A stretch of 64,000 bases of DNA, taken from Candidatus Hodarchaeota archaeon (lineage in GTDB: Archaea > Asgardarchaeota > Heimdallarchaeia > Hodarchaeales > Hodarchaeaceae). This document shows positions 4,839 to 55,629 of this stretch, piece by piece. The stretch lies in NCBI GenBank assembly GCA_016840035.1, contig JAEOTC010000030.1, positions 51,527-115,526 of the forward strand, in the 5' to 3' direction. The position numbers and the translations under genes were made by a program. Position 1 is the first letter of the stretch. Each line of letters starts with the position of its first letter. The notes beneath the pieces were generated by a model. The model ran no database searches. It was given only the letters and a program-made list of their open reading frames with translations, and was not told the origin of the DNA.

Positions 4839-4861
4839 TCGTTTTCAACCATCAATTCTGT

Positions 4862-41646: not shown

Positions 41647-42432
41647 ATGGACTCAAAATTTCCTGCAGTTGGTGAACTAGTTGTTGGATCTTGCTCAAAA
41701 GTTACACCCCATGGAGCATATTTCGAAATATTCGATTATGAAGGACTAGGAACAGAAGCAGGATTTGTTCATATTTCAGAATTGAGTCGAACTTGGGTTA
41801 GGAATATTAGAAGTCAAGTCCGCGAAGGACAAAGAGTTGTAGCGAAGATCTTGCGTATTGACTCCGCACGGGGAGAAATAGATATGTCTATTAGGAGAGT
41901 TTCAGAACCTCAGCGACGTACGAAGTTAACTGAACTGAAACAAGAGAATAGGGCTAGGGGAATCGTTGCTGTTGCTTGTGAAAAATCAGAAGTTGAAACA
42001 GAGAGAATAGAAAAAATTCTTCTTACTCAGTATGGATCTATTTATGAGGCACTTCTTCAGCTACGTGAACAATCAGTAAAAGTGTTGACAAAGATCGAAA
42101 TACCTGAAGAGGTTGCCACTATGTTGTATGATCTTGCTGTAAAAGAATTACAACCTCCTACAGTCCGTTTACTTGGAAAAATTTCCGTTACCTGTTATGA
42201 TTCGGATGGTGCTGTAGTACTTTCAAACTTCTTCAAAAAATATAAACAAACTTTTAAGAAAAAGCACAAAGGTTCAGATCTATCAATGCAAGTAATCTCT
42301 CCTCCAGATTATAGATGTACAATTGAGAGTGCTGATTGGAAAACTGCTGAAACAGTGTGGAAAAACGTCCAAAAAGAGGTTCAAGATAGCCTTAGGGGTC
42401 ATGAAATTGAAATTGCTTTCGAAAGAAAATAA
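41647..42432 (+). CDS. eif2a: Translation initiation factor aIF-2 alpha
   Basis: P.VGELV, HISELSRTWVRNIR, IDMSIRRV, PPDY. Confidence 0.95.
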   Translation: MDSKFPAVGELVVGSCSKVTPHGAYFEIFDYEGLGTEAGFVHISELSRTWVRNIRSQVREGQRVVAKILRIDSARGEIDMSIRRVSEPQRRTKLTELKQENRARGIVAVACEKSEVETERIEKILLTQYGSIYEALLQLREQSVKVLTKIEIPEEVATMLYDLAVKELQPPTVRLLGKISVTCYDSDGAVVLSNFFKKYKQTFKKKHKGSDLSMQVISPPDYRCTIESADWKTAETVWKNVQKEVQDSLRGHEIEIAFERK

Positions 42433-42460
42433 ATAACTGTGAGATAATTCTGGGATCTAA

Positions 42461-42637
42461 ATGCGTCTATTAAAAAGGTGTAATTGCAGATATACAATAG
42501 ATCAATCTCTTAAAACATGTAATTCATGTAATCATTCTTTTAAATCTGCTTATCCACCAAAATTTTCTCCACATGATAAATACGCAGAATATCGTAGACG
42601 AATGAAACAGGAAGCGAAAAACAGGGGTATCTTATGA
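42461..42637 (+). CDS. nop10: H/ACA RNP protein Nop10 (absent from the ORF track)
   Basis: MRLLKRCNCRYT..CNSC..SAYPPKFSPHDKYAEYRR; canonical position after aIF-2 alpha; ATGA overlap with next gene. Confidence 0.93.
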   Translation: MRLLKRCNCRYTIDQSLKTCNSCNHSFKSAYPPKFSPHDKYAEYRRRMKQEAKNRGIL

Positions 42638-43128
42638 CCGAACAGACTTCAGTAATCATCAGAAATTTCGAATTAAAAGACCTGGATCTTGTAATTAATA
42701 TAAATCGGAAGTGCCTGCCAGAGAACTACCCCGAAGGATTTTTTCGGACGATTTATTCTGAATGTCCCAAAGGATTCATTCTTGCTGAAGTTAATGGAAG
42801 TATTGTCGGTTATACAATGGGTCGGATTGAAAGTGGTTTGAGTCTTTTTTCCATCTTTCATAGAGCAAAAAAGGGCCATACTGTAAGTATAGCTGTTCTA
42901 CCAGAATATCGACGAAATAAAATAGCTACAAAACTGATAAACGCCTCTGCAACTGGAATGAGAGAATATGGGGCAGAAGAGCTCTTCTTAGAGGTAAGGA
43001 TGTCAAATACTGCTGCTGTTAAATTATATGAGGCTCTAGGATACAAAATCCTCAAAGAATTGCGCCATTATTACCGTGATATGGAAGGAGCATATTTAAT
43101 GGCACAAAAAGTCAAGAAAAAAGACTGA
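42634..43128 (+). CDS. Ard1/RimI N-alpha-acetyltransferase
   Basis: CLPENY, GHTVSIAVLPEYRR, LEVRMSN, YYRD.E.AY. Confidence 0.93.
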   Translation: MTEQTSVIIRNFELKDLDLVININRKCLPENYPEGFFRTIYSECPKGFILAEVNGSIVGYTMGRIESGLSLFSIFHRAKKGHTVSIAVLPEYRRNKIATKLINASATGMREYGAEELFLEVRMSNTAAVKLYEALGYKILKELRHYYRDMEGAYLMAQKVKKKD

Positions 43129-43451: not shown

Positions 43452-44453
43452 TTGGTGACTCTTGCTTTGAGAGAAAAATACCAAAACGCAAGTAATGCGC
43501 TAAATAAACTAAGTAATGCAGCTACCATTAAAGCTAAGCATCTATCTGATGTGGTTATCAAATCTTACTCACAGTTCCAAGAGATTCGATATCAGAGTGA
43601 GACTGTACCTGATATTATTATGCACTCCGATAATAAAAAATCGAATCTAAAAGAAAGTGGGGAAATTCGCGTTGCTCAGTTATTATCAGCTATTCTATGT
43701 GATCAAATAACAGAGAAATCTAATAAGTTGACGGAGGATCTTGAATTTGGAAGTATGGATCTAGATCTTCGTTCGGAAATATTAGAGCTTCGTGAACAAA
43801 TAACAAGATTGGAAGAAGTAGTACAAGTTCAAACTAAACTCGCTAATGGAGCACCAGTTTCAACCGAGGGAATTAAGAACTTGCAAAAGAAGTACGATTC
43901 CCGAATTAAACAATTAGAGAATACGCTTCTTCGACAAGAGGGACGTTCACTTACTATAACAGCGTTAGATGCAACCCAAAAACCAAAAATATTTGGAAAA
44001 GGAAAATTTATTGATAATTTAGCTGATTTAGTTCTTGAACAAGGAAAAACTCTTCGTGCTAGCGCAGGTGGTTACATTTCCATGGCAAACCTGTATACTT
44101 CGCTGAGAGATAAAGTTCCAGATATAAAATTCTCTTTGAAAGATCTAGAAAAAGCCTGTAAACAGTTAACCAAGCAATCATTAATCGAAGGGATTTCTAC
44201 TCAATCTGGAATTAAAATTGTCGAATTTACGCCAGTTTCTCTGGGAAAAGATGCTCGAAGCATATTTAATATCGCAGTTGAGAAGGGTTACGTTACAATT
44301 GAGGAAGTTATGATTCATACCAAATGGGATCAACAGCGAGTAACACGAGTATTAGATAGTCTTGTAAATCAAAATATTGCACGAAAAGTATCATCACTTG
44401 ATTCGGGAGATCAATATTACTTCCCGGGGTTATATGGAGATGATGATTGGTAG
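43452..44453 (+). CDS. ESCRT-II Vps22/Vps36-like (EAP30 domain) protein with N-terminal coiled coil
   Basis: GGYIS..LY..S.KDL.KA.K.L, P.SL..D, KGYVT..W...R...VL..L, QYYFPG tandem winged helices. Confidence 0.85.
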   Translation: MVTLALREKYQNASNALNKLSNAATIKAKHLSDVVIKSYSQFQEIRYQSETVPDIIMHSDNKKSNLKESGEIRVAQLLSAILCDQITEKSNKLTEDLEFGSMDLDLRSEILELREQITRLEEVVQVQTKLANGAPVSTEGIKNLQKKYDSRIKQLENTLLRQEGRSLTITALDATQKPKIFGKGKFIDNLADLVLEQGKTLRASAGGYISMANLYTSLRDKVPDIKFSLKDLEKACKQLTKQSLIEGISTQSGIKIVEFTPVSLGKDARSIFNIAVEKGYVTIEEVMIHTKWDQQRVTRVLDSLVNQNIARKVSSLDSGDQYYFPGLYGDDDW

Positions 44454-44462
44454 GTATAAACG

Positions 44463-45356
44463 ATGGCTGAACCAGATAAGTTTGGAGGATTATTCCGTAA
44501 AATTGGAGATACAATACATATTGGAACTAAGAAATTCAAAGGAAAAGCAATCTTAAATTCCAAGTTTGATGATACTCAAGGTACTTCATTGATTCATCGG
44601 GTGAAAGCAGAAGACAATGACAATTTCAGAAAAATTGATGGTTTTATTGTAAAAGAACCAGAAAATGCAGTCTTGTTGCAATCAGGCGTATTAATTGGGG
44701 TTGCAGGTAGTGGGATCTATGAACTCGAGAAATCTGCTAAGCACCCAGGAAGTGAAATAATATGGGTCACAAAGCGTGAATTCATCATTAAATGGGGTAC
44801 ACCAGGAATTTATACTTCGGATAATGTAATGGTCGGATGTTGGGGGATTTCTCGTATGAGAATAGTCAATCCTAGAAATTTTATAATGAATGTAGTGTCA
44901 CACAAGCAGTATTATAGCGGAGATGAGTTGAAAAACTGGGTAAAACAGACAATAATAGCAGCCGTCAAGCATGTTATGACTCGTTATACTGTCCCAGAGC
45001 TATTAAAGGAAAGAAGAAGTCTAGAGATTCAAACACGATCTGAACTAGGCCCTGAGAGTTCAAGATGGGGTTTGGAATTGGTAGGTCTAGATATTGGGGG
45101 ATTCAAAGTCCCGGAGGAATATGAAACACTCCTAACTTATGAAATTGAAAAGCAAATAATTGAAACTCGTCAAGAGCTTGCTGAAGAACGAGATCAGCTC
45201 GATAGTACTTCTGAGAAGATCAAAAAATTCGAATTAATGCTTGAACAAGCTGATGAGATGTTTCTAGCAGGAAAAATTTCTGAAAAACGCTATAAGGAAT
45301 TAACCGATAAATACTCGTCAAAACTGGCTAAATTGAAGGCACAAAATTCGCAATGA
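44463..45356 (+). CDS. SPFH/band-7 domain protein with coiled coil and SHOCT-like end
   Basis: IVKEPENAVLLQSG..G.Y, IKWGT, RWGLELV.LDI..F..PEE, GKISEKRY. Confidence 0.8.
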   Translation: MAEPDKFGGLFRKIGDTIHIGTKKFKGKAILNSKFDDTQGTSLIHRVKAEDNDNFRKIDGFIVKEPENAVLLQSGVLIGVAGSGIYELEKSAKHPGSEIIWVTKREFIIKWGTPGIYTSDNVMVGCWGISRMRIVNPRNFIMNVVSHKQYYSGDELKNWVKQTIIAAVKHVMTRYTVPELLKERRSLEIQTRSELGPESSRWGLELVGLDIGGFKVPEEYETLLTYEIEKQIIETRQELAEERDQLDSTSEKIKKFELMLEQADEMFLAGKISEKRYKELTDKYSSKLAKLKAQNSQ

Positions 45357-45366
45357 TGGTTCTTGA

Positions 45367-47124
45367 TTAACTCAATTTGAGGGAAGACCCACATTCTGGA
45401 CAAACACTCATTCCAACTGATTCCATTTCTTGATAACAACTTTGGCATACTTCAGCATTACAGAATTCACATATAAATTTTTCTTGATCGGTTTTTACCC
45501 AATTACAAACCACACATTCGAAAGAAACATAAGTTTTCCTTATTTGCAGTTGCATTTTTCTAATGCTTATGGTTCCCATAATTTTTTGATGAGTTATTAA
45601 TTTTTCAAGAATTTTTATAACCACGTCAGATGATTCACCAACAAAATCTATAATCTGATTAAGAGGGATATTCGTTACTTGACTATTCTGAATGTAGTTA
45701 ATCAATTGATTTTCAGTTGAATTAAGAGTCATGGATACTTCTTTTGGAGAAGTCCAACCTGATTTCAAAGGCCCCTGTTTACAAAAATAACATTCTTCAG
45801 TTGTCTCGAGATTATATGAAAAGGCATAAGTTAATTGACAGGAATGACAGTTTCGGGGCAAATCTATAATAAAGGCAGCAATATTTCCACAAAATGGACA
45901 TTCATGCGTACTGTCAATTTTTCTGCAGTTAGAACACATTACTCTTCTACAGTTTTGACACTCAAAGTAAATGTCGGGATTAGTATATGAGGAGGTATCA
46001 ATTTGGCAAAATATTTCCAAATTTTCAATTCCCTTAATTAAAAAAGGATTTATCGAATCTCCGGCGACTAAACGAAGTCTCAAACGAGTAGCTATATTTT
46101 TTATCAGTTTTAATAATTTTAAAACGTTTAAGTTTAATTTTGAAGCTATTCCCTCAATATCGATTCCATTGCCAAACCAGGAGATAAGTGAAATCTTTGA
46201 TAATCGATCCTGTGTCAAACTTCCACCTAAGCTTTCATTAAGAATTTCTAATAGTTTTAATAAATCATCATACGCTAAATCGAACCTTGAGACCCAGAAA
46301 TCTAAAGGAATTTCTTCATAAACATATATATCCCATAAAATTCTTGAAACAATGTCAATCGTAGAATAAATGTAATTCCCATCTTTGGAACGTATGAAGC
46401 TTATGTCTTCTCTAATTATGTCAAGTAAATCCCGAGCCTGACTATCTGATAATGCAGTGAGTCTAGAAAAATCCATAATTGAAACTTCAGATGAAACAAG
46501 AAAGCTTGTAGTAATGAATCTCTTAATTGCTTTTGTTGATCGTTCGTTTAGAGAAGGAAGGAAGAAATCAAGGTGAGTTAAGTTGTATAATCTTTGCTTA
46601 ATAGGATCAATGTATCCCCTGAAGAGATTTCTCTTAGCCATTAAGTCTAAAACAGCTTCTAACTGATCATCAGTCCAATAAAGGTGATTCAACATATAGT
46701 CGAGATCGTGGGAAGGGTTTTTTCCAATGTACTTTGTAATGAACACAATCGCTCCTGATGGTGTAAAAAATCTGCGTTTAATTATATCAAAAAAACCTTC
46801 AATTTGTTGAACGTAATCATAAATAACAGGTTCTAGTAATTTTCCATCTATATTCATTATGTCTATTAGCTCACAGATATCAACCATCCCTCCAGTATCA
46901 AGAAACTGTTGAATTTTTTTATTAAGATAAGATTTTGGAATAAAATAGACATTATTGTAGTCTAGAAGACCATTTAATTCTTGTTGCTGTATTTTGTCGT
47001 ATATAAATGCAATTAGCTTCATTTTATCAGTTTCGGAAGAAAAATCACTGAGCCGAATAGGTGATTGTGCCGTCGAAACTGCTTGTAACCATTTTGACCT
47101 CTTACGTCTTTGCATTTTGCACAA
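45367..47124 (-). CDS. Winged-helix/PCI-repeat protein with two RING-like Cys clusters; candidate E3 ligase
   Basis: Repeated wH units; CQID..CQNC..CSNC..CPFC; Zn ribbon CHSC..CYFC; PCI-like wH; terminal CVVC..CEFC..CQSC..CPEC. Confidence 0.65.
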   Translation of the reverse strand: MCKMQRRKRSKWLQAVSTAQSPIRLSDFSSETDKMKLIAFIYDKIQQQELNGLLDYNNVYFIPKSYLNKKIQQFLDTGGMVDICELIDIMNIDGKLLEPVIYDYVQQIEGFFDIIKRRFFTPSGAIVFITKYIGKNPSHDLDYMLNHLYWTDDQLEAVLDLMAKRNLFRGYIDPIKQRLYNLTHLDFFLPSLNERSTKAIKRFITTSFLVSSEVSIMDFSRLTALSDSQARDLLDIIREDISFIRSKDGNYIYSTIDIVSRILWDIYVYEEIPLDFWVSRFDLAYDDLLKLLEILNESLGGSLTQDRLSKISLISWFGNGIDIEGIASKLNLNVLKLLKLIKNIATRLRLRLVAGDSINPFLIKGIENLEIFCQIDTSSYTNPDIYFECQNCRRVMCSNCRKIDSTHECPFCGNIAAFIIDLPRNCHSCQLTYAFSYNLETTEECYFCKQGPLKSGWTSPKEVSMTLNSTENQLINYIQNSQVTNIPLNQIIDFVGESSDVVIKILEKLITHQKIMGTISIRKMQLQIRKTYVSFECVVCNWVKTDQEKFICEFCNAEVCQSCYQEMESVGMSVCPECGSSLKLS

Positions 47125-47276
47125 CCACGAGTTAATTAAACGAGGGAGGAAAATTGATTTTTATATCATTTACCCCCCCAAAAAAATGAATCGAAAACTA
47201 TATTTAATATTGATATTCTAGATAGTAAGAACGGAAAATATATAATCGAAGATATTAAGTTGTGTGCTGCTACTAA

Positions 47277-47609
47277 GTGAAAGAAACTAAGTTTAAATGC
47301 CAATTTTGTGGGTATGTTCCTCATTCACATGAACAACCTGGCACAGGTTCTTGGTATTGTCCTAGATGTGGAAAAAGAACAACAATTCGACTAAATGTCC
47401 CACGACCAAAGAAATTCAGTCAAAAACCTCCCCAATCTCGTCAAATCTCTCGTGATCAAATTTCTAGTAAGATTTACAATGAACTTACGAAAGGAAAGGG
47501 CCCAGAATTTGGTTTGAAAGAACCTTACATCAAACCAATGATCCAACCAATAAAACCCAAGATAAGAAAAGAGGTTAGAATTTTTTCTCCTTCAAATAAT
47601 AATGATTAA
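47277..47609 (+). CDS. Small Zn-ribbon protein with disordered basic tail
   Basis: CQFCG..WYCPRCG. Confidence 0.65.
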   Translation: MKETKFKCQFCGYVPHSHEQPGTGSWYCPRCGKRTTIRLNVPRPKKFSQKPPQSRQISRDQISSKIYNELTKGKGPEFGLKEPYIKPMIQPIKPKIRKEVRIFSPSNNND

Positions 47610-48856
47610 CTTTTTTTTGTTTTGAATCTAATAATAATTCTCTTCTCATCATCGTCAATTAAAGAACTGACGGTTATACGATCTCGATCTTTTAGAATCT
47701 CTCCTACCGGAACATCACCTGGAATTAATGTATTTCCTCTGAACCCGATGAAATCTTTCTTGAATTTTCGTTTTAATACGGTAAAGATGGTTCTACATTT
47801 TGATTTAGGATTAATATTAATTGTAGTCGGATTTTGGCAATACATAGAGGAATCTCCGCAAACCAAGCATTCTGGATCCTTTTTCAAATCAAACGAATTA
47901 ATAGTGCCAGTTAATGCCGAATATATTGTCAAATCAGGAATTCGGAATCGTTCTGAATCAATTAGGGTCTGGAAATACTTTCGACTTTTTTCTGGAAAAT
48001 GGTTCAATTTATCTAGAAAGAGAGTTTTAATAATTTCTTGTGATTGAATTCCACTGGTTACTGCATTAACTGTAATTAAGCTGGGAACATGGTACAATAC
48101 AGTTTGTATAACCTCTTTTTCATCAAAAAGAGGAAAATTATATTTTGATGCACTTTCATTTGCGAGTTTTGTCAGTTTGAGTGCATCTTCAGAGGAATTT
48201 TCATCAGGTTCCCTTTCATTGAGAGTATGAAATTCGTAAAGAGCTTTCCATGCACAGTGCTCCCTAATTCTAGGAGTTCCTACAAGTGTACATGGAGCAG
48301 TTAAAAGACGTGTTTCTTCTGGTGGATGAGGGGAATCACATGCTAAACATGCGGTGTTCTTAACATCAATACTTTGTACTTGTCCAAAATAACCATCAGT
48401 TGCAGAATCTATAAACGGTAAAGACAGTTCTATTGCATGTTCGTTAATATATTGACGTGCCAGAAAATTATCAACACATCCAGAAATAATGTCAGCCTCC
48501 TCAAATATACTGAAAGGTAACGATTGAATAGTGTCAGAATATGCGTCAATATCAATGGAAGAATTAAATCGATCTTTGATTACTTCCTTTGCAACACGAG
48601 CTTTATTTTTTCCAATATCAGATCGGGAAAATAGCAATTGCCTATTCAGATTCGAAAATTCAATAGTATCCATATCAACAAGTATCAACTTTCCAATACC
48701 AAGTAATGCTAAATTCTTAGCTACTTCCCCCCCAGTGCCTCCAAGCCCAATAATCAGCACACAACTATCTTCGATTATACTCTGATCCCAGATGGAGAGT
48801 CGTTCCTGGCGATCAAATACAGAATCTGAGGGAATCGAGTTCATTGAGATTTCCAT
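47606..48856 (-). CDS. Ubiquitin-like activating enzyme E1 (eukaryote-like UBA3/UBA2 type)
   Basis: FDRQ, GLGGTG, DMDTIEFSNLNRQ, catalytic PCTLVGTPRIREHC, CxxC pairs, C-terminal ubiquitin-fold-like domain. Confidence 0.92.
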   Translation of the reverse strand: MEISMNSIPSDSVFDRQERLSIWDQSIIEDSCVLIIGLGGTGGEVAKNLALLGIGKLILVDMDTIEFSNLNRQLLFSRSDIGKNKARVAKEVIKDRFNSSIDIDAYSDTIQSLPFSIFEEADIISGCVDNFLARQYINEHAIELSLPFIDSATDGYFGQVQSIDVKNTACLACDSPHPPEETRLLTAPCTLVGTPRIREHCAWKALYEFHTLNEREPDENSSEDALKLTKLANESASKYNFPLFDEKEVIQTVLYHVPSLITVNAVTSGIQSQEIIKTLFLDKLNHFPEKSRKYFQTLIDSERFRIPDLTIYSALTGTINSFDLKKDPECLVCGDSSMYCQNPTTININPKSKCRTIFTVLKRKFKKDFIGFRGNTLIPGDVPVGEILKDRDRITVSSLIDDDEKRIIIRFKTKKS

Positions 48857-48879
48857 TAGTAGAAAGAGAGTGGAGGAGA

Positions 48880-49209
48880 TTATCCCCCTTTTATCTGATC
48901 AGGAACTATCATCAGAAGAGCGTTTTCTTCAATATTGTATGAAGCAAGATTATTTGATGGATTCATCCTTCGTCCTTTAAATAAAAGTGCAATTGGTACA
49001 ACTTCAGGAATATTAAAAGCATCACGAGCCGCAGAAAGTGCTTGAAACACTGTGCCGTTAATATTGATGTACTTTTCACGAATATTTTGATCGGGTGGAA
49101 GTTGTGGATCCTTAAAGCGGACTTTTATCATACGTTCAATAGTATCCGATGGTGTCCCCGGGGAGCTGACATTTGAGTCCCAGACCACATCTTTTTTTCG
49201 ATTACTCAT
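48880..49209 (-). CDS. Ubiquitin-like modifier ending in GG, with N-terminal extension
   Basis: Beta-grasp pattern (IKVRFK, LLFKGRRM, LASYNIEE), C-terminal KGG-stop, adjacent to E1; ATG 49209 after AGGTGA. Confidence 0.88.
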   Translation of the reverse strand: MSNRKKDVVWDSNVSSPGTPSDTIERMIKVRFKDPQLPPDQNIREKYININGTVFQALSAARDAFNIPEVVPIALLFKGRRMNPSNNLASYNIEENALLMIVPDQIKGG

Positions 49210-49229
49210 TTTTTTCACCTTGCTTGTCC

Positions 49230-50018
49230 TTATACATAGAATAAGCGTTCGATTTCGGCTAATACAGTAATAAGATCAATACGACCTTTCGCATAATCTT
49301 CTAAAGGTCCACGAATCAGAGGGTATCTTGAAAGAACTTCACTTTCGAGTCCTATCGGGTAATTTTTCTTTCTCTTAATTGTAAACGGAATAATTTCTCC
49401 CGTTTGAGCATAAAAATTTATCTTGATTTCCTTTTTTGAATATGTGGCATCGTAGCTTTCCAATATTTGTCGAATTAATGGATCTTTTTCTTTGATTATG
49501 GTATCTGAAACAGAAGCTATCGGACTAGGATCGAGTTTCTGAGGGATTTGTTTTTCTGATATCTGGTAGATTTCTTCTAGTACGTCTAAAACTGAGCTTG
49601 TTCCAGGTTTCCAATTTTTCATTGTTTGAAGATCAATAATCTCACAATCTAATACTTCTCGAAGGGTATTTGGACCATCGATGAATGGTTTGTCTGGTAA
49701 ATCATCAAGAACAATTAATAATGGAAATGCGTACTGTCCAACCTGCATTTTAACACGAATTTTGCCTACTTCTTCTCCTACTAATTCCCCTGGAAAATTC
49801 TCAAGGATTTTTTGGGATTCTTGGTATAATGTATAGTAGTGTTCAGATTCAACTTCTTCGTCAACTGAACTTTCGTCAACGGCAATACCCTGTGGTTTCT
49901 TGAGATAATTTGTTAAATCACAATAATCACAATGAACAGGACGAAGAGAAGAAGGTTTTCCTGACAAAGGAGCACCACATCCATTGCACTGGGCAACATC
50001 TGTTTCGAGAGCAGTCAT
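49230..50018 (-). CDS. Zn-ribbon plus UEV/RWD-like (inactive E2-fold) protein
   Basis: CNGCGAPL..CDYC; LPDKPFI..LQTMKNWKP..SVLDVLEEI matches the UBC-fold pattern without HPN. Confidence 0.6.
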   Translation of the reverse strand: MTALETDVAQCNGCGAPLSGKPSSLRPVHCDYCDLTNYLKKPQGIAVDESSVDEEVESEHYYTLYQESQKILENFPGELVGEEVGKIRVKMQVGQYAFPLLIVLDDLPDKPFIDGPNTLREVLDCEIIDLQTMKNWKPGTSSVLDVLEEIYQISEKQIPQKLDPSPIASVSDTIIKEKDPLIRQILESYDATYSKKEIKINFYAQTGEIIPFTIKRKKNYPIGLESEVLSRYPLIRGPLEDYAKGRIDLITVLAEIERLFYV

Positions 50019-50338
50019 ATTTCCACCTCAATTTAATTTCCGATTTCTGTGAAGATTTATTTTCCGAAAAATTCAGAAAATCCTAACCCACTGGAATGAT
50101 CTTCATTCTCACATAACATGAGAACCTATGAATCCTATACAACAGTCTAGCCAGAATTTCCCTAATTAACTTCCAGAAAATCAAATTACTGCAGGTTCAT
50201 TCTGGAAACTGACCTTAAAAAACTAGCTCATAATGGCTTTCTTTCTAGCCAGACAATCCACAGCTTTAAATAAAATTGATGGAGTAAGTTTTTAGGTGAA
50301 TAGATAACACCTGATTAATGAACTAGGAGCGAACGCGT

Positions 50339-50890
50339 ATGTCTGATCTACATTCCAGACGATTAAGGGAAGAATTTAAGCGAATGCTAAAGATTTATCC
50401 CCCAAAAAGTGCGAACATAAAGTGGGTGATTGTGGATAATGATCTTCATCGCTATTCTGCGACAATAAAAGGGAAAGAAGGAACTCCATATGAAAATGGG
50501 GAATGGAAAATCACTATCGATTTACCACCCGAATATCCGTTTAAACCTCCAATTGTAAATTTCATCACACCAATCTGGCATCCCAATATTGCGATCGGTG
50601 AAACCCGATGGAAATGGGGTTCTAATGTGTGTTTGAGTCTGATAAATTGGAACAATATTGGTGAACCCGGTGGATGGAAGAAAACTATAACACTACCTAG
50701 CGTATTTGAACATATTGAAATGATGCTGGATGTGTATCAGAGTTCAGGAGATTCTGATTTTCCAGAATACCTTGTCGATCCTGGGGATCCATTCAATCCA
50801 GAAGCTGGAAAAATAATGCAGTCTAATTTTGACGGTTTTTGGGAAAAAGCTGTAGAGTGGACAGAGAAATTTGGGAAGAATAAATCCTAG
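50339..50890 (+). CDS. Ubiquitin-conjugating enzyme E2
   Basis: RRLREE, GTPYENG, PPEYPFKPP.V.F.TPIWHPNI, catalytic VCLSLI, DPFNPEA. Confidence 0.95.
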   Translation: MSDLHSRRLREEFKRMLKIYPPKSANIKWVIVDNDLHRYSATIKGKEGTPYENGEWKITIDLPPEYPFKPPIVNFITPIWHPNIAIGETRWKWGSNVCLSLINWNNIGEPGGWKKTITLPSVFEHIEMMLDVYQSSGDSDFPEYLVDPGDPFNPEAGKIMQSNFDGFWEKAVEWTEKFGKNKS

Positions 50891-50947
50891 TGAACTGAAT
50901 GCAATCGGGGATATTTCAAGAGAAAAAGAAACTAAGAGATTGTCCAT

Positions 50948-51514
50948 ATGACCAACAAATATCCTCACGAAACTAAAAGTCTGAATAAAAAATCAGATGA
51001 AGATAAAATAGGCGATATAAACGACGAAACAATCAGTTTAAATGCTGAAACTAATTCTGTCATGATAACTCACAAAGCTATCGATGAGATTACGAATTTT
51101 TCACTAAACGCTATGCCAAAAGAGGCGATTGGACTACTTAGTGGAAGGGAAATCAGACCTAGAGAACTATTAATAACGAAGGGTCTATTTGTGACAGAGG
51201 GCGAGGAGTATTCGGTGTCCTTTTCTGAAAGTGATTTTCAGATTTTTGACCAAGTATCCAGTCCAGAATTTTGTGTTGGATGGTGGCACTCTCATCCAGG
51301 ATTTGGACTTTTCTTATCACAAACGGATATTACCACTCACATTTTTTCCTTCCAACTCGTTCAACCTCTCTCTGTGGCACTTGTAGTGGATCCTATGGAT
51401 ATTGGAGACGATGGTATTGCTAAATACAAGTTTTTCCAAATCGTTGGAGATTCACGAAATAGAGATTTTCAATATATTGAAATCGCAAGTTATCTATCAG
51501 TATCTAGTGAATAG
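50948..51514 (+). CDS. JAB1/MPN+ metalloprotease (Rpn11/CSN5-like deconjugase)
   Basis: E(AIGLL), VGWWHSHPGFGLFLSQTD JAMM motif, ALVVDP. Confidence 0.93.
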   Translation: MTNKYPHETKSLNKKSDEDKIGDINDETISLNAETNSVMITHKAIDEITNFSLNAMPKEAIGLLSGREIRPRELLITKGLFVTEGEEYSVSFSESDFQIFDQVSSPEFCVGWWHSHPGFGLFLSQTDITTHIFSFQLVQPLSVALVVDPMDIGDDGIAKYKFFQIVGDSRNRDFQYIEIASYLSVSSE

Positions 51515-51599
51515 AGAAATTTCTAGAATTGAATTTTGGGAAATCGGTAAAGGGGAATAATATTAAACATCCTGGTGGAAAATAAATTCGAGGTTCAAA

Positions 51600-52382
51600 A
51601 TGATACTAGATGATCTTCTATTGGGTATTTTTCTCTCCTTTGGGCAATTCTTCCTGCAAGGAGAATCAGCCGGACTCTTAGATACTATTATTGTACTTTT
51701 AGGACCAGGATTAGTATTATTTTTTACATTTTACTTACTATGGGCTGGAAGAAGGAAGAATCATAAAATTATCAATGTATCGAAAGATGCTCTTCTTGAA
51801 ATTTTCTCTAATGAATTTGATGATCTAGTAACTGATCAATTGAGCTCTAATGGTGGACTTTTATTTCCTAAGTATAAGAGAACATCTAGTATTCCTTTTA
51901 AGGACTTTAGAGTTGTATTTGCACTAGAGGAACGTCATTTAATGCTCTCGGTAATAATTTCATGGTTTTCAGGAGCAAATGACTATATTGCAGTTCAAGG
52001 TAACGCAAAAAAAGGGAAATTACCTACGAAGATTCAGATTATTCCAAATCATGAAGAAGGACAGATTAAGAAGCACCAAGACTTACTTTTTGAATTGAAA
52101 GATATTAAGTTGAATTCTGAATTATTGGATCAGTTTTTTCTCATGAAAGCAACATCAGTTAAGATGGGAAGCTTCTTTCTCAAGGATAAACCTCTATTAA
52201 AGCAAATTTATTCCATTCGAAATTCACTAGTTCGTTTATCAATTGATTCTACCGAGGATCCTGCTATTAGACTCTATTGTAGAATAAATAAGGATTTAGA
52301 CCTAAAGAAGCTGCATAGAGTTTTTATATCGCTTGTAGAAAGGGTAAATCAAGTAGCGGATAAAAAAGTGATGAGGAAATAA
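51600..52382 (+). CDS. CCDC47/DUF1682 (PAT complex subunit)-like membrane protein
   Basis: TM helix followed by GRRKN..I......L....F, then L.ERH.ML..I......D.I, like the CCDC47 juxtamembrane domain. Confidence 0.6.
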   Translation: MILDDLLLGIFLSFGQFFLQGESAGLLDTIIVLLGPGLVLFFTFYLLWAGRRKNHKIINVSKDALLEIFSNEFDDLVTDQLSSNGGLLFPKYKRTSSIPFKDFRVVFALEERHLMLSVIISWFSGANDYIAVQGNAKKGKLPTKIQIIPNHEEGQIKKHQDLLFELKDIKLNSELLDQFFLMKATSVKMGSFFLKDKPLLKQIYSIRNSLVRLSIDSTEDPAIRLYCRINKDLDLKKLHRVFISLVERVNQVADKKVMRK

Positions 52383-52403: not shown

Positions 52404-52967
52404 TTATAAAGTCTCAATCTTTTCAGTTACTCTTTGTCGAAGCCATTCTAATCCTTCTTCAACATTGAATCCTGTTTTAGCTGAAGTAGGTACAATCGCA
52501 TATGAATGTGTTGTGACTTTGTGGAGATTGAGGGATCTTGCTACTTCACCCGCAGAAGCAGCGTTTTCTAAATCCTGTTTGTTTGCCAGAACAAGAATAG
52601 GAATGTTTTCAACCTTGTCGTTATCTAAGACATATTTCCATAATTCAGCCTGAGCTTCGTCAAAACGTTGTCTATCATTAGAATCTATAACATAAACTAT
52701 CCCCATGGAACCAGCCATATAGCTCTCCCAGAGTGATTCACGAAAAGCTTCTTGACCTCCAATATCCCATGATATAAATCGGACATTCCCAGAACTAAAC
52801 TCATCAACATTCATACCGAGTGTTCGAAAGGTGCTATCATCAAATTCCCCAGATGTGATTCTTTTAACAATCGTTGTTTTACCTGCGTGATCCAGCCCAA
52901 GCCAGGCTATTTTCACCGTTAATCGTTCTCTTGCGAATTTTGAGCGCAATTTTGTAAGGAAACTCAT
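52404..52967 (-). CDS. Arf-family small GTPase
   Basis: GLDHAGKT, TLGMNV, WDIGGQ, NKQD, TSAK; N-terminal amphipathic helix MSFLTKLRSKF. Confidence 0.93.
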   Translation of the reverse strand: MSFLTKLRSKFARERLTVKIAWLGLDHAGKTTIVKRITSGEFDDSTFRTLGMNVDEFSSGNVRFISWDIGGQEAFRESLWESYMAGSMGIVYVIDSNDRQRFDEAQAELWKYVLDNDKVENIPILVLANKQDLENAASAGEVARSLNLHKVTTHSYAIVPTSAKTGFNVEEGLEWLRQRVTEKIETL

Positions 52968-52980
52968 CGATGATACCTCT

Positions 52981-53529
52981 TCATTTTCTCTGTATTTGCT
53001 TACTTTGAAATCTCTCGCTCATCCATTGCCAAGGTTCATCGACGCCTTCTCCAGTAAGAGCGGAGCATGGATAAACCCCAAATGTTCGTGGACGTTCTGC
53101 CATTTCCGTTTCCAATTCAAGAGTTTTGACAATATTGTCTAATGACATTGCAACATCGAGATCTTGCTTATTTGCCAGAAATAGGAATGCAGAGTCTTCT
53201 GGTGCCCATTGAATAACATTCTTGAGCCATTTCGCTGCTGTTTCGACCTTATCTCTATCAGCTGAATCGAATACGAAAACCACCCCTGAGGCCTCTGAAA
53301 CAAAAGGTTCCCATAAACTAGTAGGGTATGTGGGTTGTCCCCCTAGATCTACAGCCATTACCTCAAGTTCCCCTATTTTCAACGTTTCAATATTCATGCC
53401 CATAGTAGGAACTGTTTCTAAATCCTCATGACCTTTTAATCGTTTAACTAAAGTTGTTTTTCCTGCGTTAGCTAATCCGACGAAAGCTATTTGATTTTCG
53501 ATTTCTCGACCAAATAATTTTGTTGGCAT
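52981..53529 (-). CDS. Arf-family small GTPase
   Basis: GLANAGKT, PTMGMN, DLGGQ, NKQD, CSALTGEG. Confidence 0.92.
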   Translation of the reverse strand: MPTKLFGREIENQIAFVGLANAGKTTLVKRLKGHEDLETVPTMGMNIETLKIGELEVMAVDLGGQPTYPTSLWEPFVSEASGVVFVFDSADRDKVETAAKWLKNVIQWAPEDSAFLFLANKQDLDVAMSLDNIVKTLELETEMAERPRTFGVYPCSALTGEGVDEPWQWMSERFQSKQIQRK

Positions 53530-53724: not shown

Positions 53725-55629
53725 CTAAACTACACGGGTGAATATTGGTTGATGAGAGACTAGCTTGGGAAATACTCTGAAGTACGTTGGTTTATCCTTG
53801 GTTTGAGCCTGAACATACTCTATTACATCTTCCAGCGCTTGGAATTCTTGAGAATTATTAAATCGATATCGCACACTCACTTTTCCCTCTTTTAATTCTT
53901 TTTCTCCCGCTACAATAATGATGGGTGTCCATAATTTTTCTGCAGCTCGGATTTTCTTACCTAGTGATAAGTCACGATCATCGATTTCCACTCTAATGCG
54001 ATTTTGTTCCAATTTTTGAGCGATTTTATCTGTAAATTCCAAATAATCCTCAGAAACCGGTAAAATTCTAATTTGAGCTGGAGATAGCCATAATGGAAAT
54101 TGTGGTTTTGATCCTCTTTGAGAACGTTTCAATTGATCCTCAATAATGCCGTAGATGACTCTTTCAGTAGATCCTGAGAGCGAGCAATGCATTAGAAGGG
54201 GATAAACTTCTTTCCCCTCTGAATCGATATATTGTATATCAAAACGCTCAGAATTCTCTACATCAATCTGAACAGTAGAAAGAGCTGCAGCTTTCTTTTG
54301 AGTGTCAACCACATTAAATTCGAATTTTAAAATAAAATATGCATATCTCGTCTCAAACAATTCCAACAGTATTGGTTTATTGAGTATTTTTACAAGAGAG
54401 ACAATCCAATCTTTATTTTCCTCATAAAATGCTGTTGTCATCCGAAATGCTGTTTCAATATTTATCTCGATATCGCTCATATATTGAAAAGCGAGAAGAA
54501 ATTGTTCCTCAAATTCTTTCTGTGCCATCTGAATATCGCTAGTAGCTGTGTGTAAGTCAGGCATGGTGAAAGCTCTAAGTCTACGTAATCCTGCCAACTC
54601 TCCGCGTTGTTCACGTCTGAATGATTTAGCCATTTCGAAGATCTTAAGTGGGAGTTGACGATAACTTATGATAGCATCAGACATAGTAAGAAATTGGCCA
54701 AAACAGGCTGCAAATCGCAAGAAATGATTTCTATTTCCAGATTTTACAACATATTGTCTTGCAGGAAATCTTTCAATATATTTCTTCAGCGATTGGTGAT
54801 CATAAGAGTACATGAGTGGTGTTTCAACAATCATTGCTCCATATTGGGCAGCCATGTTGTTGACATGATCTTCAATAAGCCTCTTAACTACGTAACCTCT
54901 TGGAAGTATTCTAAAATTACCAGGATCAGATCCTTCTTCATAATCCACTAATTCAAGATTCTTCATGACATCCACATGAAGTGGAGGGGTGCTAACTGTT
55001 CTATCCTTATCGGTCTCGTACTTAATAAACAATTCAAGCTCTTTCAATCCTTTATAGTTAAATTTGTCAAAGGGTTCCATTTTCCCATCCATAGTAAGAA
55101 CATGAAAAGTTGAACGGGCCGTTTCTTCTGCATCAAGAGCCGTGGTAACTTCGGCTGAAGCTTCAACTGTTTTTGCACCTGATTGACCCAATATTTCCTT
55201 AGATCTTTCTGCTAAAGCATGGCCTTTACAATTCAGATTGAAACCTTTGTAATATCCAAAAGGAGCTCTAACAATGCTCAAATCTGGATGGTTGGAACGT
55301 AAGCTTGTTTCAATGTTTTTTAGCGCAGATAAAGCTGCGTCAGGTTTAGCAGGCTGAGTTTTGGCTAAATGTACCCAAGGGTACACAATCAAATTGCTTT
55401 CACCAATATCTTTCAAAGCAGAAACAATTTCATCGCAGGCATTAGAGATCACAGTTGATATATCGGGGACGTCATTCTTCTCAACTGAAATGAAAACGAC
55501 TAAAGATGAATCCGTAGTAGAATATTCCATCTTAGCTGTTTTGGATGATTCAGGATTACTAATTGCCTTTTCAGTTACTTTCCAATCAAACCCGAGTGAG
55601 TGTACGAGTAAAAGTTGCATTTTAATCAC
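53725..55629 (-). CDS. thrS: Threonine--tRNA ligase (archaeal type with N-terminal editing domain)
   Basis: YPWVHL, APFGYYK, LRFAACFGQF, FRREQRGE, HCSLSGS.ER. Confidence 0.97.
   Translation of the reverse strand: MIKMQLLLVHSLGFDWKVTEKAISNPESSKTAKMEYSTTDSSLVVFISVEKNDVPDISTVISNACDEIVSALKDIGESNLIVYPWVHLAKTQPAKPDAALSALKNIETSLRSNHPDLSIVRAPFGYYKGFNLNCKGHALAERSKEILGQSGAKTVEASAEVTTALDAEETARSTFHVLTMDGKMEPFDKFNYKGLKELELFIKYETDKDRTVSTPPLHVDVMKNLELVDYEEGSDPGNFRILPRGYVVKRLIEDHVNNMAAQYGAMIVETPLMYSYDHQSLKKYIERFPARQYVVKSGNRNHFLRFAACFGQFLTMSDAIISYRQLPLKIFEMAKSFRREQRGELAGLRRLRAFTMPDLHTATSDIQMAQKEFEEQFLLAFQYMSDIEINIETAFRMTTAFYEENKDWIVSLVKILNKPILLELFETRYAYFILKFEFNVVDTQKKAAALSTVQIDVENSERFDIQYIDSEGKEVYPLLMHCSLSGSTERVIYGIIEDQLKRSQRGSKPQFPLWLSPAQIRILPVSEDYLEFTDKIAQKLEQNRIRVEIDDRDLSLGKKIRAAEKLWTPIIIVAGEKELKEGKVSVRYRFNNSQEFQALEDVIEYVQAQTKDKPTYFRVFPKLVSHQPIFTRVV

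Follow-up and report, generated by a model that had tools for sequence, protein, structure and literature searches.

A 64,000-nucleotide (nt) stretch of contig JAEOTC010000030.1 (positions 51,527 to 115,526, forward strand), hereafter the window, belongs to a metagenome-assembled genome (MAG) of the order Hodarchaeales (Candidatus Hodarchaeota archaeon, GCA_016840035.1; 4.3 Mb, 293 contigs, completeness 87%). It encodes a conjugation cassette for a ubiquitin-like modifier (Ubl), in which a candidate E3 ligase is encoded together with an E1, an E2 and a JAMM protease of ubiquitin type. Judged from sequence profiles and the predicted fold, the N-terminal winged-helix scaffold of the E3 candidate is homologous to that of UFL1, and the cassette is a variant of known Asgard ubiquitin systems that bears on the role of UFL1 before UFM1. 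It is no demonstrated translocon or ribosome tagging system. An original prediction, made from the sequence of the window without database searches, had suggested such a system, with a UFM1-like modifier, a UFL1-like E3 and an adjoining CCDC47-like gene. Open reading frame (ORF) calls recovered all eight of its genes within 45.3–52.4 kb of the window, and family searches and motifs bore out the E1, E2, JAMM protease and GG-ending Ubl of what it had called a complete conjugation cluster.

The E3 candidate is 585 amino acids (aa) long when read from a TTG codon and 582 aa when read from the ATG at 47115, the more likely start. Tandem UFL1-like winged helices occupy residues ~1–350, followed by a Cys-rich RING/ZZ-like cluster with a Zn ribbon (~373–448), a PCI-type winged helix (~465–530) and a C4C4 RING-like finger (537–578). 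In a PDB search with a profile of 26 homologues, the four top sequences were all human UFL1 (E from 6.5e-7 to 1e-5), with a collinear alignment from about residue 21 to 168. Foldseek searches with the predicted model placed five UFL1 chains on top (1.2e-9 to 5.8e-8), with SelB next at 2e-4, and the UFL1-like N-terminus of the original prediction therefore holds at the level of both profile and structure. VIA alignments of the two proteins were collinear over 130–282 residues; together the alignments covered UFL1 residues ~25–364, and nothing aligned past ~364. The AlphaFold2 model (predicted local distance difference test (pLDDT) 85, predicted template modelling score 0.75) shows five or six winged helices, the Cys-rich region, a further winged helix and a small C-terminal finger. 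The Pfam family for UFL1 (PF09743) gave no match on the window protein at E ≤ 10, and a precomputed match to it exists for one of 62 homologues.

An E3 role of the 582-aa protein is likely. Its C-terminal finger has eight conserved Cys (five invariant, three at ≥90%), with a cross-brace-like spacing of C-x2-C-x11-C-x2-C-x4-C-x2-C-x11-C-x2-C, and the weak profile matches to this finger are nearly all RINGs (UHRF1, MAT1, RNF31, NOT4, TRIM32 and BRE1; E 0.01–1). The E2–RING interaction modelling suggested with the original prediction was graded 'weak support' for residues 355–582 paired with the cassette E2 (score 0.42, best control 0.01), with at least 33% of contacts shared between runs and a partner pLDDT of at least 77. 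Of 80 solved complexes 58 attained this mark, as did 2 of 110 mismatched pairs, passes scoring ≤0.60 comprising seven of the solved complexes and both of the mismatches; because E2–RING complexes have already been solved, the pass may show likeness only. Full-length E3 was restricted to genomes carrying the Ubl of the cassette. Both genes were found in 21/21 genomes of the window's own family (f1, sampled through a single genus), and in the sister family (f28) one genome (G228) has both and another (G229) neither. For a further E3 homologue, at 27% identity (P0062, L038), the locus is cut at the E3 gene.

The MAG of the window also encodes a 788-aa protein (contig C11, L028:538-2904) that begins with HEAT repeats, ends in a winged helix and matches PF09743 weakly (E 0.09), surrounded by small-GTPase genes, and proteins of ~790 aa with a UFL1-like N-terminal region occur in 5 of 40 genomes of another Asgard family.

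The enzymes encoded with this scaffold are of ubiquitin/NEDD8/SUMO type and not of the UBA5, UFC1 and UFSP type, in agreement with the original prediction. The E1 combines a ThiF adenylation domain with a catalytic-Cys domain of the Uba1/UBA3/SAE2 type, as judged by motifs and PDB comparison, and has a GLGGTG nucleotide loop (residues 37–42), a PCT catalytic-Cys motif (188–190) and CxxC motifs at 170 and 330. Its nearest solved chains, catalytic adenylation domains, were those of Uba1 (2e-34), SAE2 (5e-33) and UBA3 (2e-28), whereas UBA5 scored just 1e-14 and ranked beneath ThiF and MoeB. In the UQ_con-family E2, the HPN motif (residues 81–83) and Cys98 are invariant among 16 orthologues, and the closest solved chains are UBE2K, UBE2D and UBE2T (~1e-16). 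The JAMM protein, a likely deconjugase, retains an intact HSHx7SxxD motif (HxHx7SxxD type) at residues 114–127 and scores 33.1 bits on the JAB model (cut-off 22.5).

The Ubl consists of a conserved N-terminal extension of ~25 aa and a beta-grasp core of ~83 aa that ends in KGG directly at the stop codon; the GG end agrees with the original prediction. This terminus is found in 16 of 17 full-length orthologues, the remaining one ending in GGN. Its beta-grasp family match, its GG terminus and the E1 and E2 genes that go with it, that of the E1 in the same operon, place the protein among ubiquitin-type modifiers. It scores above the cut-off for Rad60-SLD (PF11976; 25.0 versus 23.8 bits) and below that for ubiquitin (PF00240; 21.5 versus 25.4 bits), and all 17 sequences (the window Ubl and 16 orthologues, sharing 75–92% identity) match both families (best 2.5e-7 and 4.8e-6, respectively). 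None of the 17 matches Ufm1 (PF03671), even at E ≤ 10, and PDB searches with the single sequence and with the profile returned solely ubiquitin chains among the 60 matches listed. Among 5.8 billion proteins searched, 47 homologues were found, all of them Asgard; their precomputed Pfam domains, where given, are PF11976 or PF00240 only, and some carry the NCBI name 'ubiquitin-like'. The sequence comparisons thus give no support to a UFM1-like modifier. Of three findings that the original prediction had named as refuting it, two were made: the grouping of the Ubl with ubiquitin- and SUMO-like families and, as described below, a linkage to the CCDC47-like gene that is not conserved. The missing Ufm1 matches, the Uba1/SAE2/UBA3-type E1 and the UQ_con E2 with its HPN motif all speak against a UFM1 identity of the Ubl. 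A short, UFM1-like DPxLP motif in the Ubl is anecdotal. Ufm1 homologues have been reported from nine Asgard clades (PMC12962969); compared with these, the window Ubl family is much narrower, occurring in 11 of 201 sampled Asgard genomes.

Two stretches of the Ubl stand out in alignments. Residues 1–29 (window 49132–49218, minus strand) form the conserved extension, with the pattern KKDV[IV]WD...IE[KR]M, which is missing from a Freyrarchaeum-type orthologue. The stretch PSDTIE...PPDQ of the window protein aligns with ubiquitin residues 17–41 (phmmer whole-sequence E ~0.002, 76-aa ubiquitin chains), a likeness that may be chance or a relic.

A beta-grasp protein ending in GG could also serve a sulfur-carrier or SAMP-like system, with a ThiS/MoaD-type carrier and a MoeB-like E1 and no protein tagging, and the E1 does score on ThiF, MoeB and SAMP-E1 models, far under their cut-offs. 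We regard this as highly improbable: the E1, with its PCT motif, resembles Uba1, SAE2 and UBA3 most, the Ubl matches ubiquitin and Rad60-SLD rather than ThiS or MoaD, and the cassette includes an E2 with HPN and Cys as well as a JAMM protease.

We think it probable that the window encodes a self-contained, additional ubiquitin-type cascade, leading from the E1 through Cys98 of the E2 and a RING on a UFL1-type scaffold to a target, with reversal by the JAMM protease. The canonical E1 would adenylate the GG-ending Ubl and form a thioester at the Cys of the PCT motif; because the Ubl gene ends at GG, no C-terminal processing would be needed. The Ubl would then be handed to Cys98 of the UBC-type E2, and the 582-aa protein would act as E3, with its RING-type zinc finger or fingers engaging the charged E2 and its winged-helix array offering a scaffold for substrate or partner. 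The JAMM protease would take the tag off. The analysis establishes the families and catalytic motifs of E1, E2, JAMM and Ubl, the homology of the scaffold to UFL1 and the conserved zinc ligands; that the 582-aa protein serves as E3, by what route the tag travels and what it is attached to are parts of the scheme that we infer. Coordinates of the cassette and its flanks are given in Table 1.

Table 1 Genes of the Ubl cassette and its flanks, in window coordinates
Feature	Coordinates	Strand	Support or remark
aIF2-alpha and GNAT acetyltransferase	41647-43128		Left flank, housekeeping
ESCRT-II Vps22/36-like paralogue (EAP30 family), N-terminal extension	43452..44453	+	Pfam EAP30 1.4e-10
SPFH/Band-7 protein	44463..45356	+	Pfam Band_7 4e-16
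E3 candidate, UFL1-like winged helices and RING-like finger	45367..47124	-	Profile and fold match to UFL1
Small Zn-ribbon protein, Lys/Pro-rich tail	47277..47609	+	CxxC at 8-11, 28-31
Canonical E1, 416 aa	47606..48856	-	ThiF 4e-52 (177 bits)
Ubl modifier, ends GG-stop	48880..49218	-	Rad60-SLD 1.7e-5, ubiquitin 2e-4
262-aa conserved protein, family unassigned, N-terminal Zn ribbon	49230..50018	-	CxxC at 11, 30
UBC-type E2	50339..50890	+	UQ_con 2.4e-24, 86 bits
JAMM/MPN+ isopeptidase	50948..51514	+	JAB 5e-8, Prok-JAB 1e-6
CCDC47-like membrane protein	51600..52382	+	Weak PF07946 matches across homologues
Two tandem Arf-family small GTPases	52404..53529	-	Arf 4.5e-48, 6.7e-38; secondary SRPRB 1.6e-10, 2.7e-13
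Threonyl-tRNA synthetase (ThrRS)	53725-55629		Right flank, housekeeping

The cassette is one of three E1/E2/Ubl sets in this genome. Contig C3 carries a compact Ubl-E1-E2-JAMM set, and contig C184 (63000–82500; locus L103) an ordinary ubiquitin-ESCRT cluster with Vps4, two Snf7 genes, Vps22/36, Vps28, a UEV/E2-like gene, E1 and ubiquitin, together with a Ras-like GTPase with a long N-terminal extension and a KaiC-like ATPase. The C184 ubiquitin scores 55.6 bits; the window Ubl is the most divergent from ubiquitin in the genome (19.6 versus 54.9 bits). The ESCRT-II-like gene of the window is likewise one of three EAP30 genes, the top-scoring of which is on C184. Because of the separate sets on C3 and C184, we take the window cassette to be a further system, equipped with a divergent Vps22/36 paralogue of its own. 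No match to Ufm1 (PF03671), UFC1 (PF08694), UFSP (PF07910) or DDRGK1 (PF09756) was found in the genome at E ≤ 1, which at 87% completeness does not prove that these genes are absent. As far as gene content tells, a UFL1-type scaffold would thus work with ubiquitin-type enzymes in a genome with no detected UFM1, UFC1, UFSP or DDRGK1.

Gene order around the cassette was identical in 16 of 16 related loci of sufficient length, all from family f1: ThrRS, Arf, Arf, CCDC47-like, JAMM, E2, 262-aa protein, Ubl, E1, Zn-ribbon protein, E3, SPFH protein and ESCRT-II-like protein. Such constancy argues that the arrangement is not due to chance; the collinear block also includes ThrRS, aIF2-alpha and GNAT, so it reflects the synteny of the lineage besides any shared function. 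The left flank (aIF2-alpha/GNAT side) is kept in the sister family too. Beyond f1 the block comes apart. In G228 of the sister family its parts lie on three contigs, one with the ESCRT-II-like, SPFH, E3 and Zn-ribbon genes, one with the 262-aa protein, Ubl and E1, and one with the CCDC47-like gene. On the first of these (L092:2970-6946) the four genes run in one direction with operon-like gaps of 0–20 nt; the SPFH gene, which converges on the E3 gene in the window, here has the same direction and ends at 4859, with the E3 gene starting at 4860. After them come genes for an MglA-like GTPase and roadblock proteins, and not E1, Ubl or E2.

Across both families, the neighbours kept with the E3 gene are thus the SPFH protein, the ESCRT-II (Vps22/36) paralogue and the Zn-ribbon protein. 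The ESCRT-II-like gene adjoins SPFH and E3 in 22 of 22 loci and in G228, and the SPFH protein has no predicted transmembrane segment and no hydrophobic window above 1.6. The small Zn-ribbon protein, rightly named in the original prediction, has a CxxC...CxxC pattern and gives weak Zn-ribbon Pfam matches only; orthologues at 37–76% identity are present in all f1 loci, and in G228 an ORF of 99 aa with a Zn ribbon comes straight after the E3 gene. In a Freyrarchaeum-like genome (G070), a Zn ribbon at the N-terminus and a Lys/Pro-rich linker are part of the JAMM protein itself. They are reminiscent of the 110-aa Zn-ribbon protein that the window encodes as a gene of its own and that may be a fragment once split off.

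The genes that stay with Ubl in both families are those for E1 and the 262-aa protein, in the order 262-aa protein, Ubl, E1. The 262-aa protein is highly conserved, with an N-terminal Zn ribbon followed by one or more alpha/beta regions, and because its gene stays in an operon with Ubl and E1 it is probably a core factor of the pathway. Calling it UEV-like, as had been done at first, found no statistical backing: Pfam gave no significant match and none to UQ_con, UEV or RWD, the PDB profile search nothing significant (best a SUMO2 fragment, E 0.025), and hhalign a probability of 0.1% against the E2 of the cluster and nothing significant against its Ubl. The genome does have a true UEV (PF05743), in the ubiquitin-ESCRT cluster on C184.

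Several of these observations weigh against an E3 role, and with it against the cascade as we propose it. The E3 gene lies beside E1, Ubl and E2 only in f1, being on a different contig from the 262-aa/Ubl/E1 operon in G228, and G070 has an orthologous Ubl-E1-E2-JAMM operon (L089:130-2978; 53%, 39%, 53% and 34% identity to the window Ubl, E1, E2 and JAMM) without such an E3. Pfam contains no RING, U-box or HECT family matching the 585-aa protein at E ≤ 0.1, nor any other family at that threshold, and the middle zinc cluster is modelled at a pLDDT of 50–64 (residues ~370–420). Further down the fold lists come SelB, TFIIIC and ESCRT-II, and tandem winged helices also bind nucleic acid. The 582-aa protein could accordingly be no ligase and serve instead as a winged-helix/zinc-finger adaptor, or as a nucleic-acid-binding regulator, of the ESCRT-II-like/SPFH module, with E1 and E2 tagging targets unaided by it, or relying on the 262-aa protein for specificity. 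This would fit the constant position of the E3 gene, across the two families, beside those for the ESCRT-II-like, SPFH and Zn-ribbon proteins, the retention of the 262-aa gene rather than the E3 gene in the Ubl-E1 operon, the Freyrarchaeum-type operon that lacks this E3 and the missing Pfam RING match. We nevertheless hold it unlikely, since the eight-Cys finger is conserved and its weak matches are consistently RINGs, the E3–E2 prediction did pass, if weakly, the closest known relative of the scaffold is an E3, and E3 and Ubl co-occur across genomes.

Where a RING-bearing E3 of this kind would act is suggested by the company that it keeps. Its most conserved neighbours being the SPFH protein, the ESCRT-II paralogue and the Zn-ribbon protein, we tentatively suggest that tagging could take place at a membrane scaffold, in parallel to the ordinary ubiquitin-ESCRT system, rather than on ribosomes, although we would put this at rather less than an even chance.

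The CCDC47-like membrane protein predicted next to the cluster is present, and its identity is moderately supported by Pfam family matches and a tentative fold match. It has a single strong transmembrane segment (~25–49) and a cytosolic alpha/beta domain. PF07946 scores 11 bits on the window protein and 25.5 bits (8.8e-6) on the best homologue (gathering cut-off 27.7), and is the family matched by most members (16 of 26 close homologues). These alignments span profile positions 11–252 of 326, a span also matched by distant members at 26–29% identity, and positions 252–326 were aligned in no member. The predicted model is of low confidence (pLDDT 58); the PDB chains that it matched (chain '4') were taken as CCDC47, a subunit common to both complexes concerned, from their length and numbering and from the literature (PMC12572126) rather than from a chain table. 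PDB sequence searches with the family, by profile and by single sequence, never recovered CCDC47, and a full-library hidden Markov model (HMM) search with the profile gave 25 representatives of 58–281 aa, which did not bridge to CCDC47 of eukaryotic length. From the Pfam matches and the fold, we consider the protein probably a true minimal relative of CCDC47. The family is widespread, occurring in 76 of the 201 sampled genomes and 19 of 27 families, which suggests an archaeal root of this translocon accessory factor whether or not it has any link to tagging.

Its genomic surroundings are varied. Several genomes of the genus of the window have two or three CCDC47-like paralogues (three in G102, two in G139), the extra copies of which (L086–L088) do not adjoin Ubl genes. 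An Arf/SR-beta-like GTPase gene flanks the CCDC47-like gene in f1, in 3 of 3 sampled loci of another family (f2; L069–L071) and on an unrelated metagenome contig, the one that carries P0130, and this pairing is wider than that of Ubl with the CCDC47-like gene. In two distant lineages (L033:2293-4183 and L036:3774-5229) it adjoins a conserved 177–184-aa protein starting with ME.P..A...FVVL, and in the first of these a membrane-anchored zf-AN1 protein as well. In the window, the Arf GTPase pair converges on the CCDC47-like gene and is probably context, outside the Ubl cassette.

The original prediction saw in the cluster a possible hybrid intermediate between ubiquitylation and UFMylation, one that would act with the CCDC47-like protein to tag translocon clients or, at uL24, membrane-bound ribosomes. 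In its favour, UFL1, the homologue of the E3 scaffold, is found docked on eukaryotic 60S subunits at Sec61 (titles of PDB entries 8ohd and 8qfc), and the CCDC47-like protein is probably a true relative of CCDC47. The CCDC47-like gene is codirectional with E2 and JAMM, 85 nt downstream of the latter, Arf/SR-beta-like GTPases stand next to it, and its adjacency recurs in every related locus of sufficient length. Between JAMM and the CCDC47-like gene, an AT-rich run resembles a TATA element and no oligo-T terminator is evident, a picture that is ambiguous for co-transcription.

The linkage to the CCDC47-like gene holds in f1 only and fails the test of conservation that came with the original prediction. 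None of 25 CCDC47-like loci outside f1 has an E1, E2, JAMM, Ubl or E3 gene within ~10 kb, and an HMM of the E3 family run on all ORFs of these loci gave RING-like noise only (E 0.03–0.08). G228 and G070 have both Ubl and the CCDC47-like gene, on separate contigs. The synteny within f1 is unspecific, given the housekeeping genes in the block. Moreover, the Ubl is not UFM1-like, the part of UFL1 beyond the matched region has no counterpart in the alignments, and neither a DDRGK homologue nor Asterix (PF03669; noise only, E 0.74) was found in the genome. A role at the ribosome or translocon is therefore unsupported, with distant scaffold homology and one-lineage synteny on its side and other genes as the stable neighbours of the E3, and we consider the intermediate quite improbable.

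CCDC47 is a subunit of the PAT complex and of the multipass/SND3 translocon (PF07946; PDB 7tm3, 7tut, 9i78). Compared with the eukaryotic protein, its archaeal relative lacks the luminal domain and the C-terminal coiled-coil/latch helices, and all of its PF07946 matches are below the gathering score; a literature search on relevant terms found no archaeal CCDC47 homologue apparently described. The C-terminal finger of the E3 candidate is comparable to C4C4 RINGs of the CNOT4 type in its eight Cys, its RING-like, cross-brace type of spacing and the x4 gap between ligands 4 and 5. The NOT4 matches themselves are not significant (E 0.2–1), and E2 binding is predicted weakly only.

The ubiquitin operon of Caldiarchaeum has the composition Ub-E1-E2-RING-Rpn11. 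In Asgard archaea, ubiquitin clusters are syntenic with ESCRT genes (Hatano et al. 2022, PMC9192718), and one of our loci (L006) is from B3_Heim, a genome plotted in that study. Like these archaeal and Asgard operons, the window cassette groups a single-chain E1 and a UBC-type E2 with a JAMM protease and a Ubl that ends in GG, next to an ESCRT-II-type gene. It differs from them in being a second or third set in its genome, apart from the Ub-ESCRT cluster on C184, and in having an E3 on a UFL1-type scaffold instead of a small RING protein.

Few known archaea are as closely related to eukaryotes as the Hodarchaeales. Proteins with a UFL1 domain have already been published from Asgard archaea (PMC10183829; preprint 10.1101/2020.10.19.343400), and an Asgard origin of UFL1 and DDRGK1, with a possible UFM1-independent function, has been proposed (PMC10183829). 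This literature leaves the ancestral function unstated, and the cassette offers a concrete, testable answer: a RING-bearing UFL1-type scaffold co-occurs with ubiquitin-type E1, E2, Ubl and JAMM and, in one lineage, is embedded among them. Our literature search found no description of a UFL1-type scaffold fused to RING fingers within a canonical ubiquitin-type cassette. The cassette is small, and reconstitution in vitro would be feasible with five or six soluble proteins. A bolder extension, which we rate as unlikely, is that it preserves a pre-UFM1 state, in which a RING-bearing UFL1-type scaffold worked with a ubiquitin-type E1, E2 and tag at a membrane with SPFH and ESCRT-II-like proteins and, in this lineage, perhaps also at ribosomes engaged co-translationally, with the CCDC47-like protein as a partner. 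If so, the eukaryotic UFM1 ligase would derive from such a scaffold by loss of the RING and new coupling to UBA5, UFC1 and UFM1.

UFL1 itself is RING-less. What it shares with the window E3 is the N-terminal tandem winged-helix array (PF09743; PDB 8ohd, 8qfc, 8b9x and 8c0d, with DDRGK1). The window E3, by comparison, carries two RING/ZZ-like zinc modules, combines zinc fingers with a winged helix of PCI type in its C-terminal part, and is encoded with a ubiquitin-type E1 and E2, searches of the genome having found no UFM1, UFC1, UFSP or DDRGK1.

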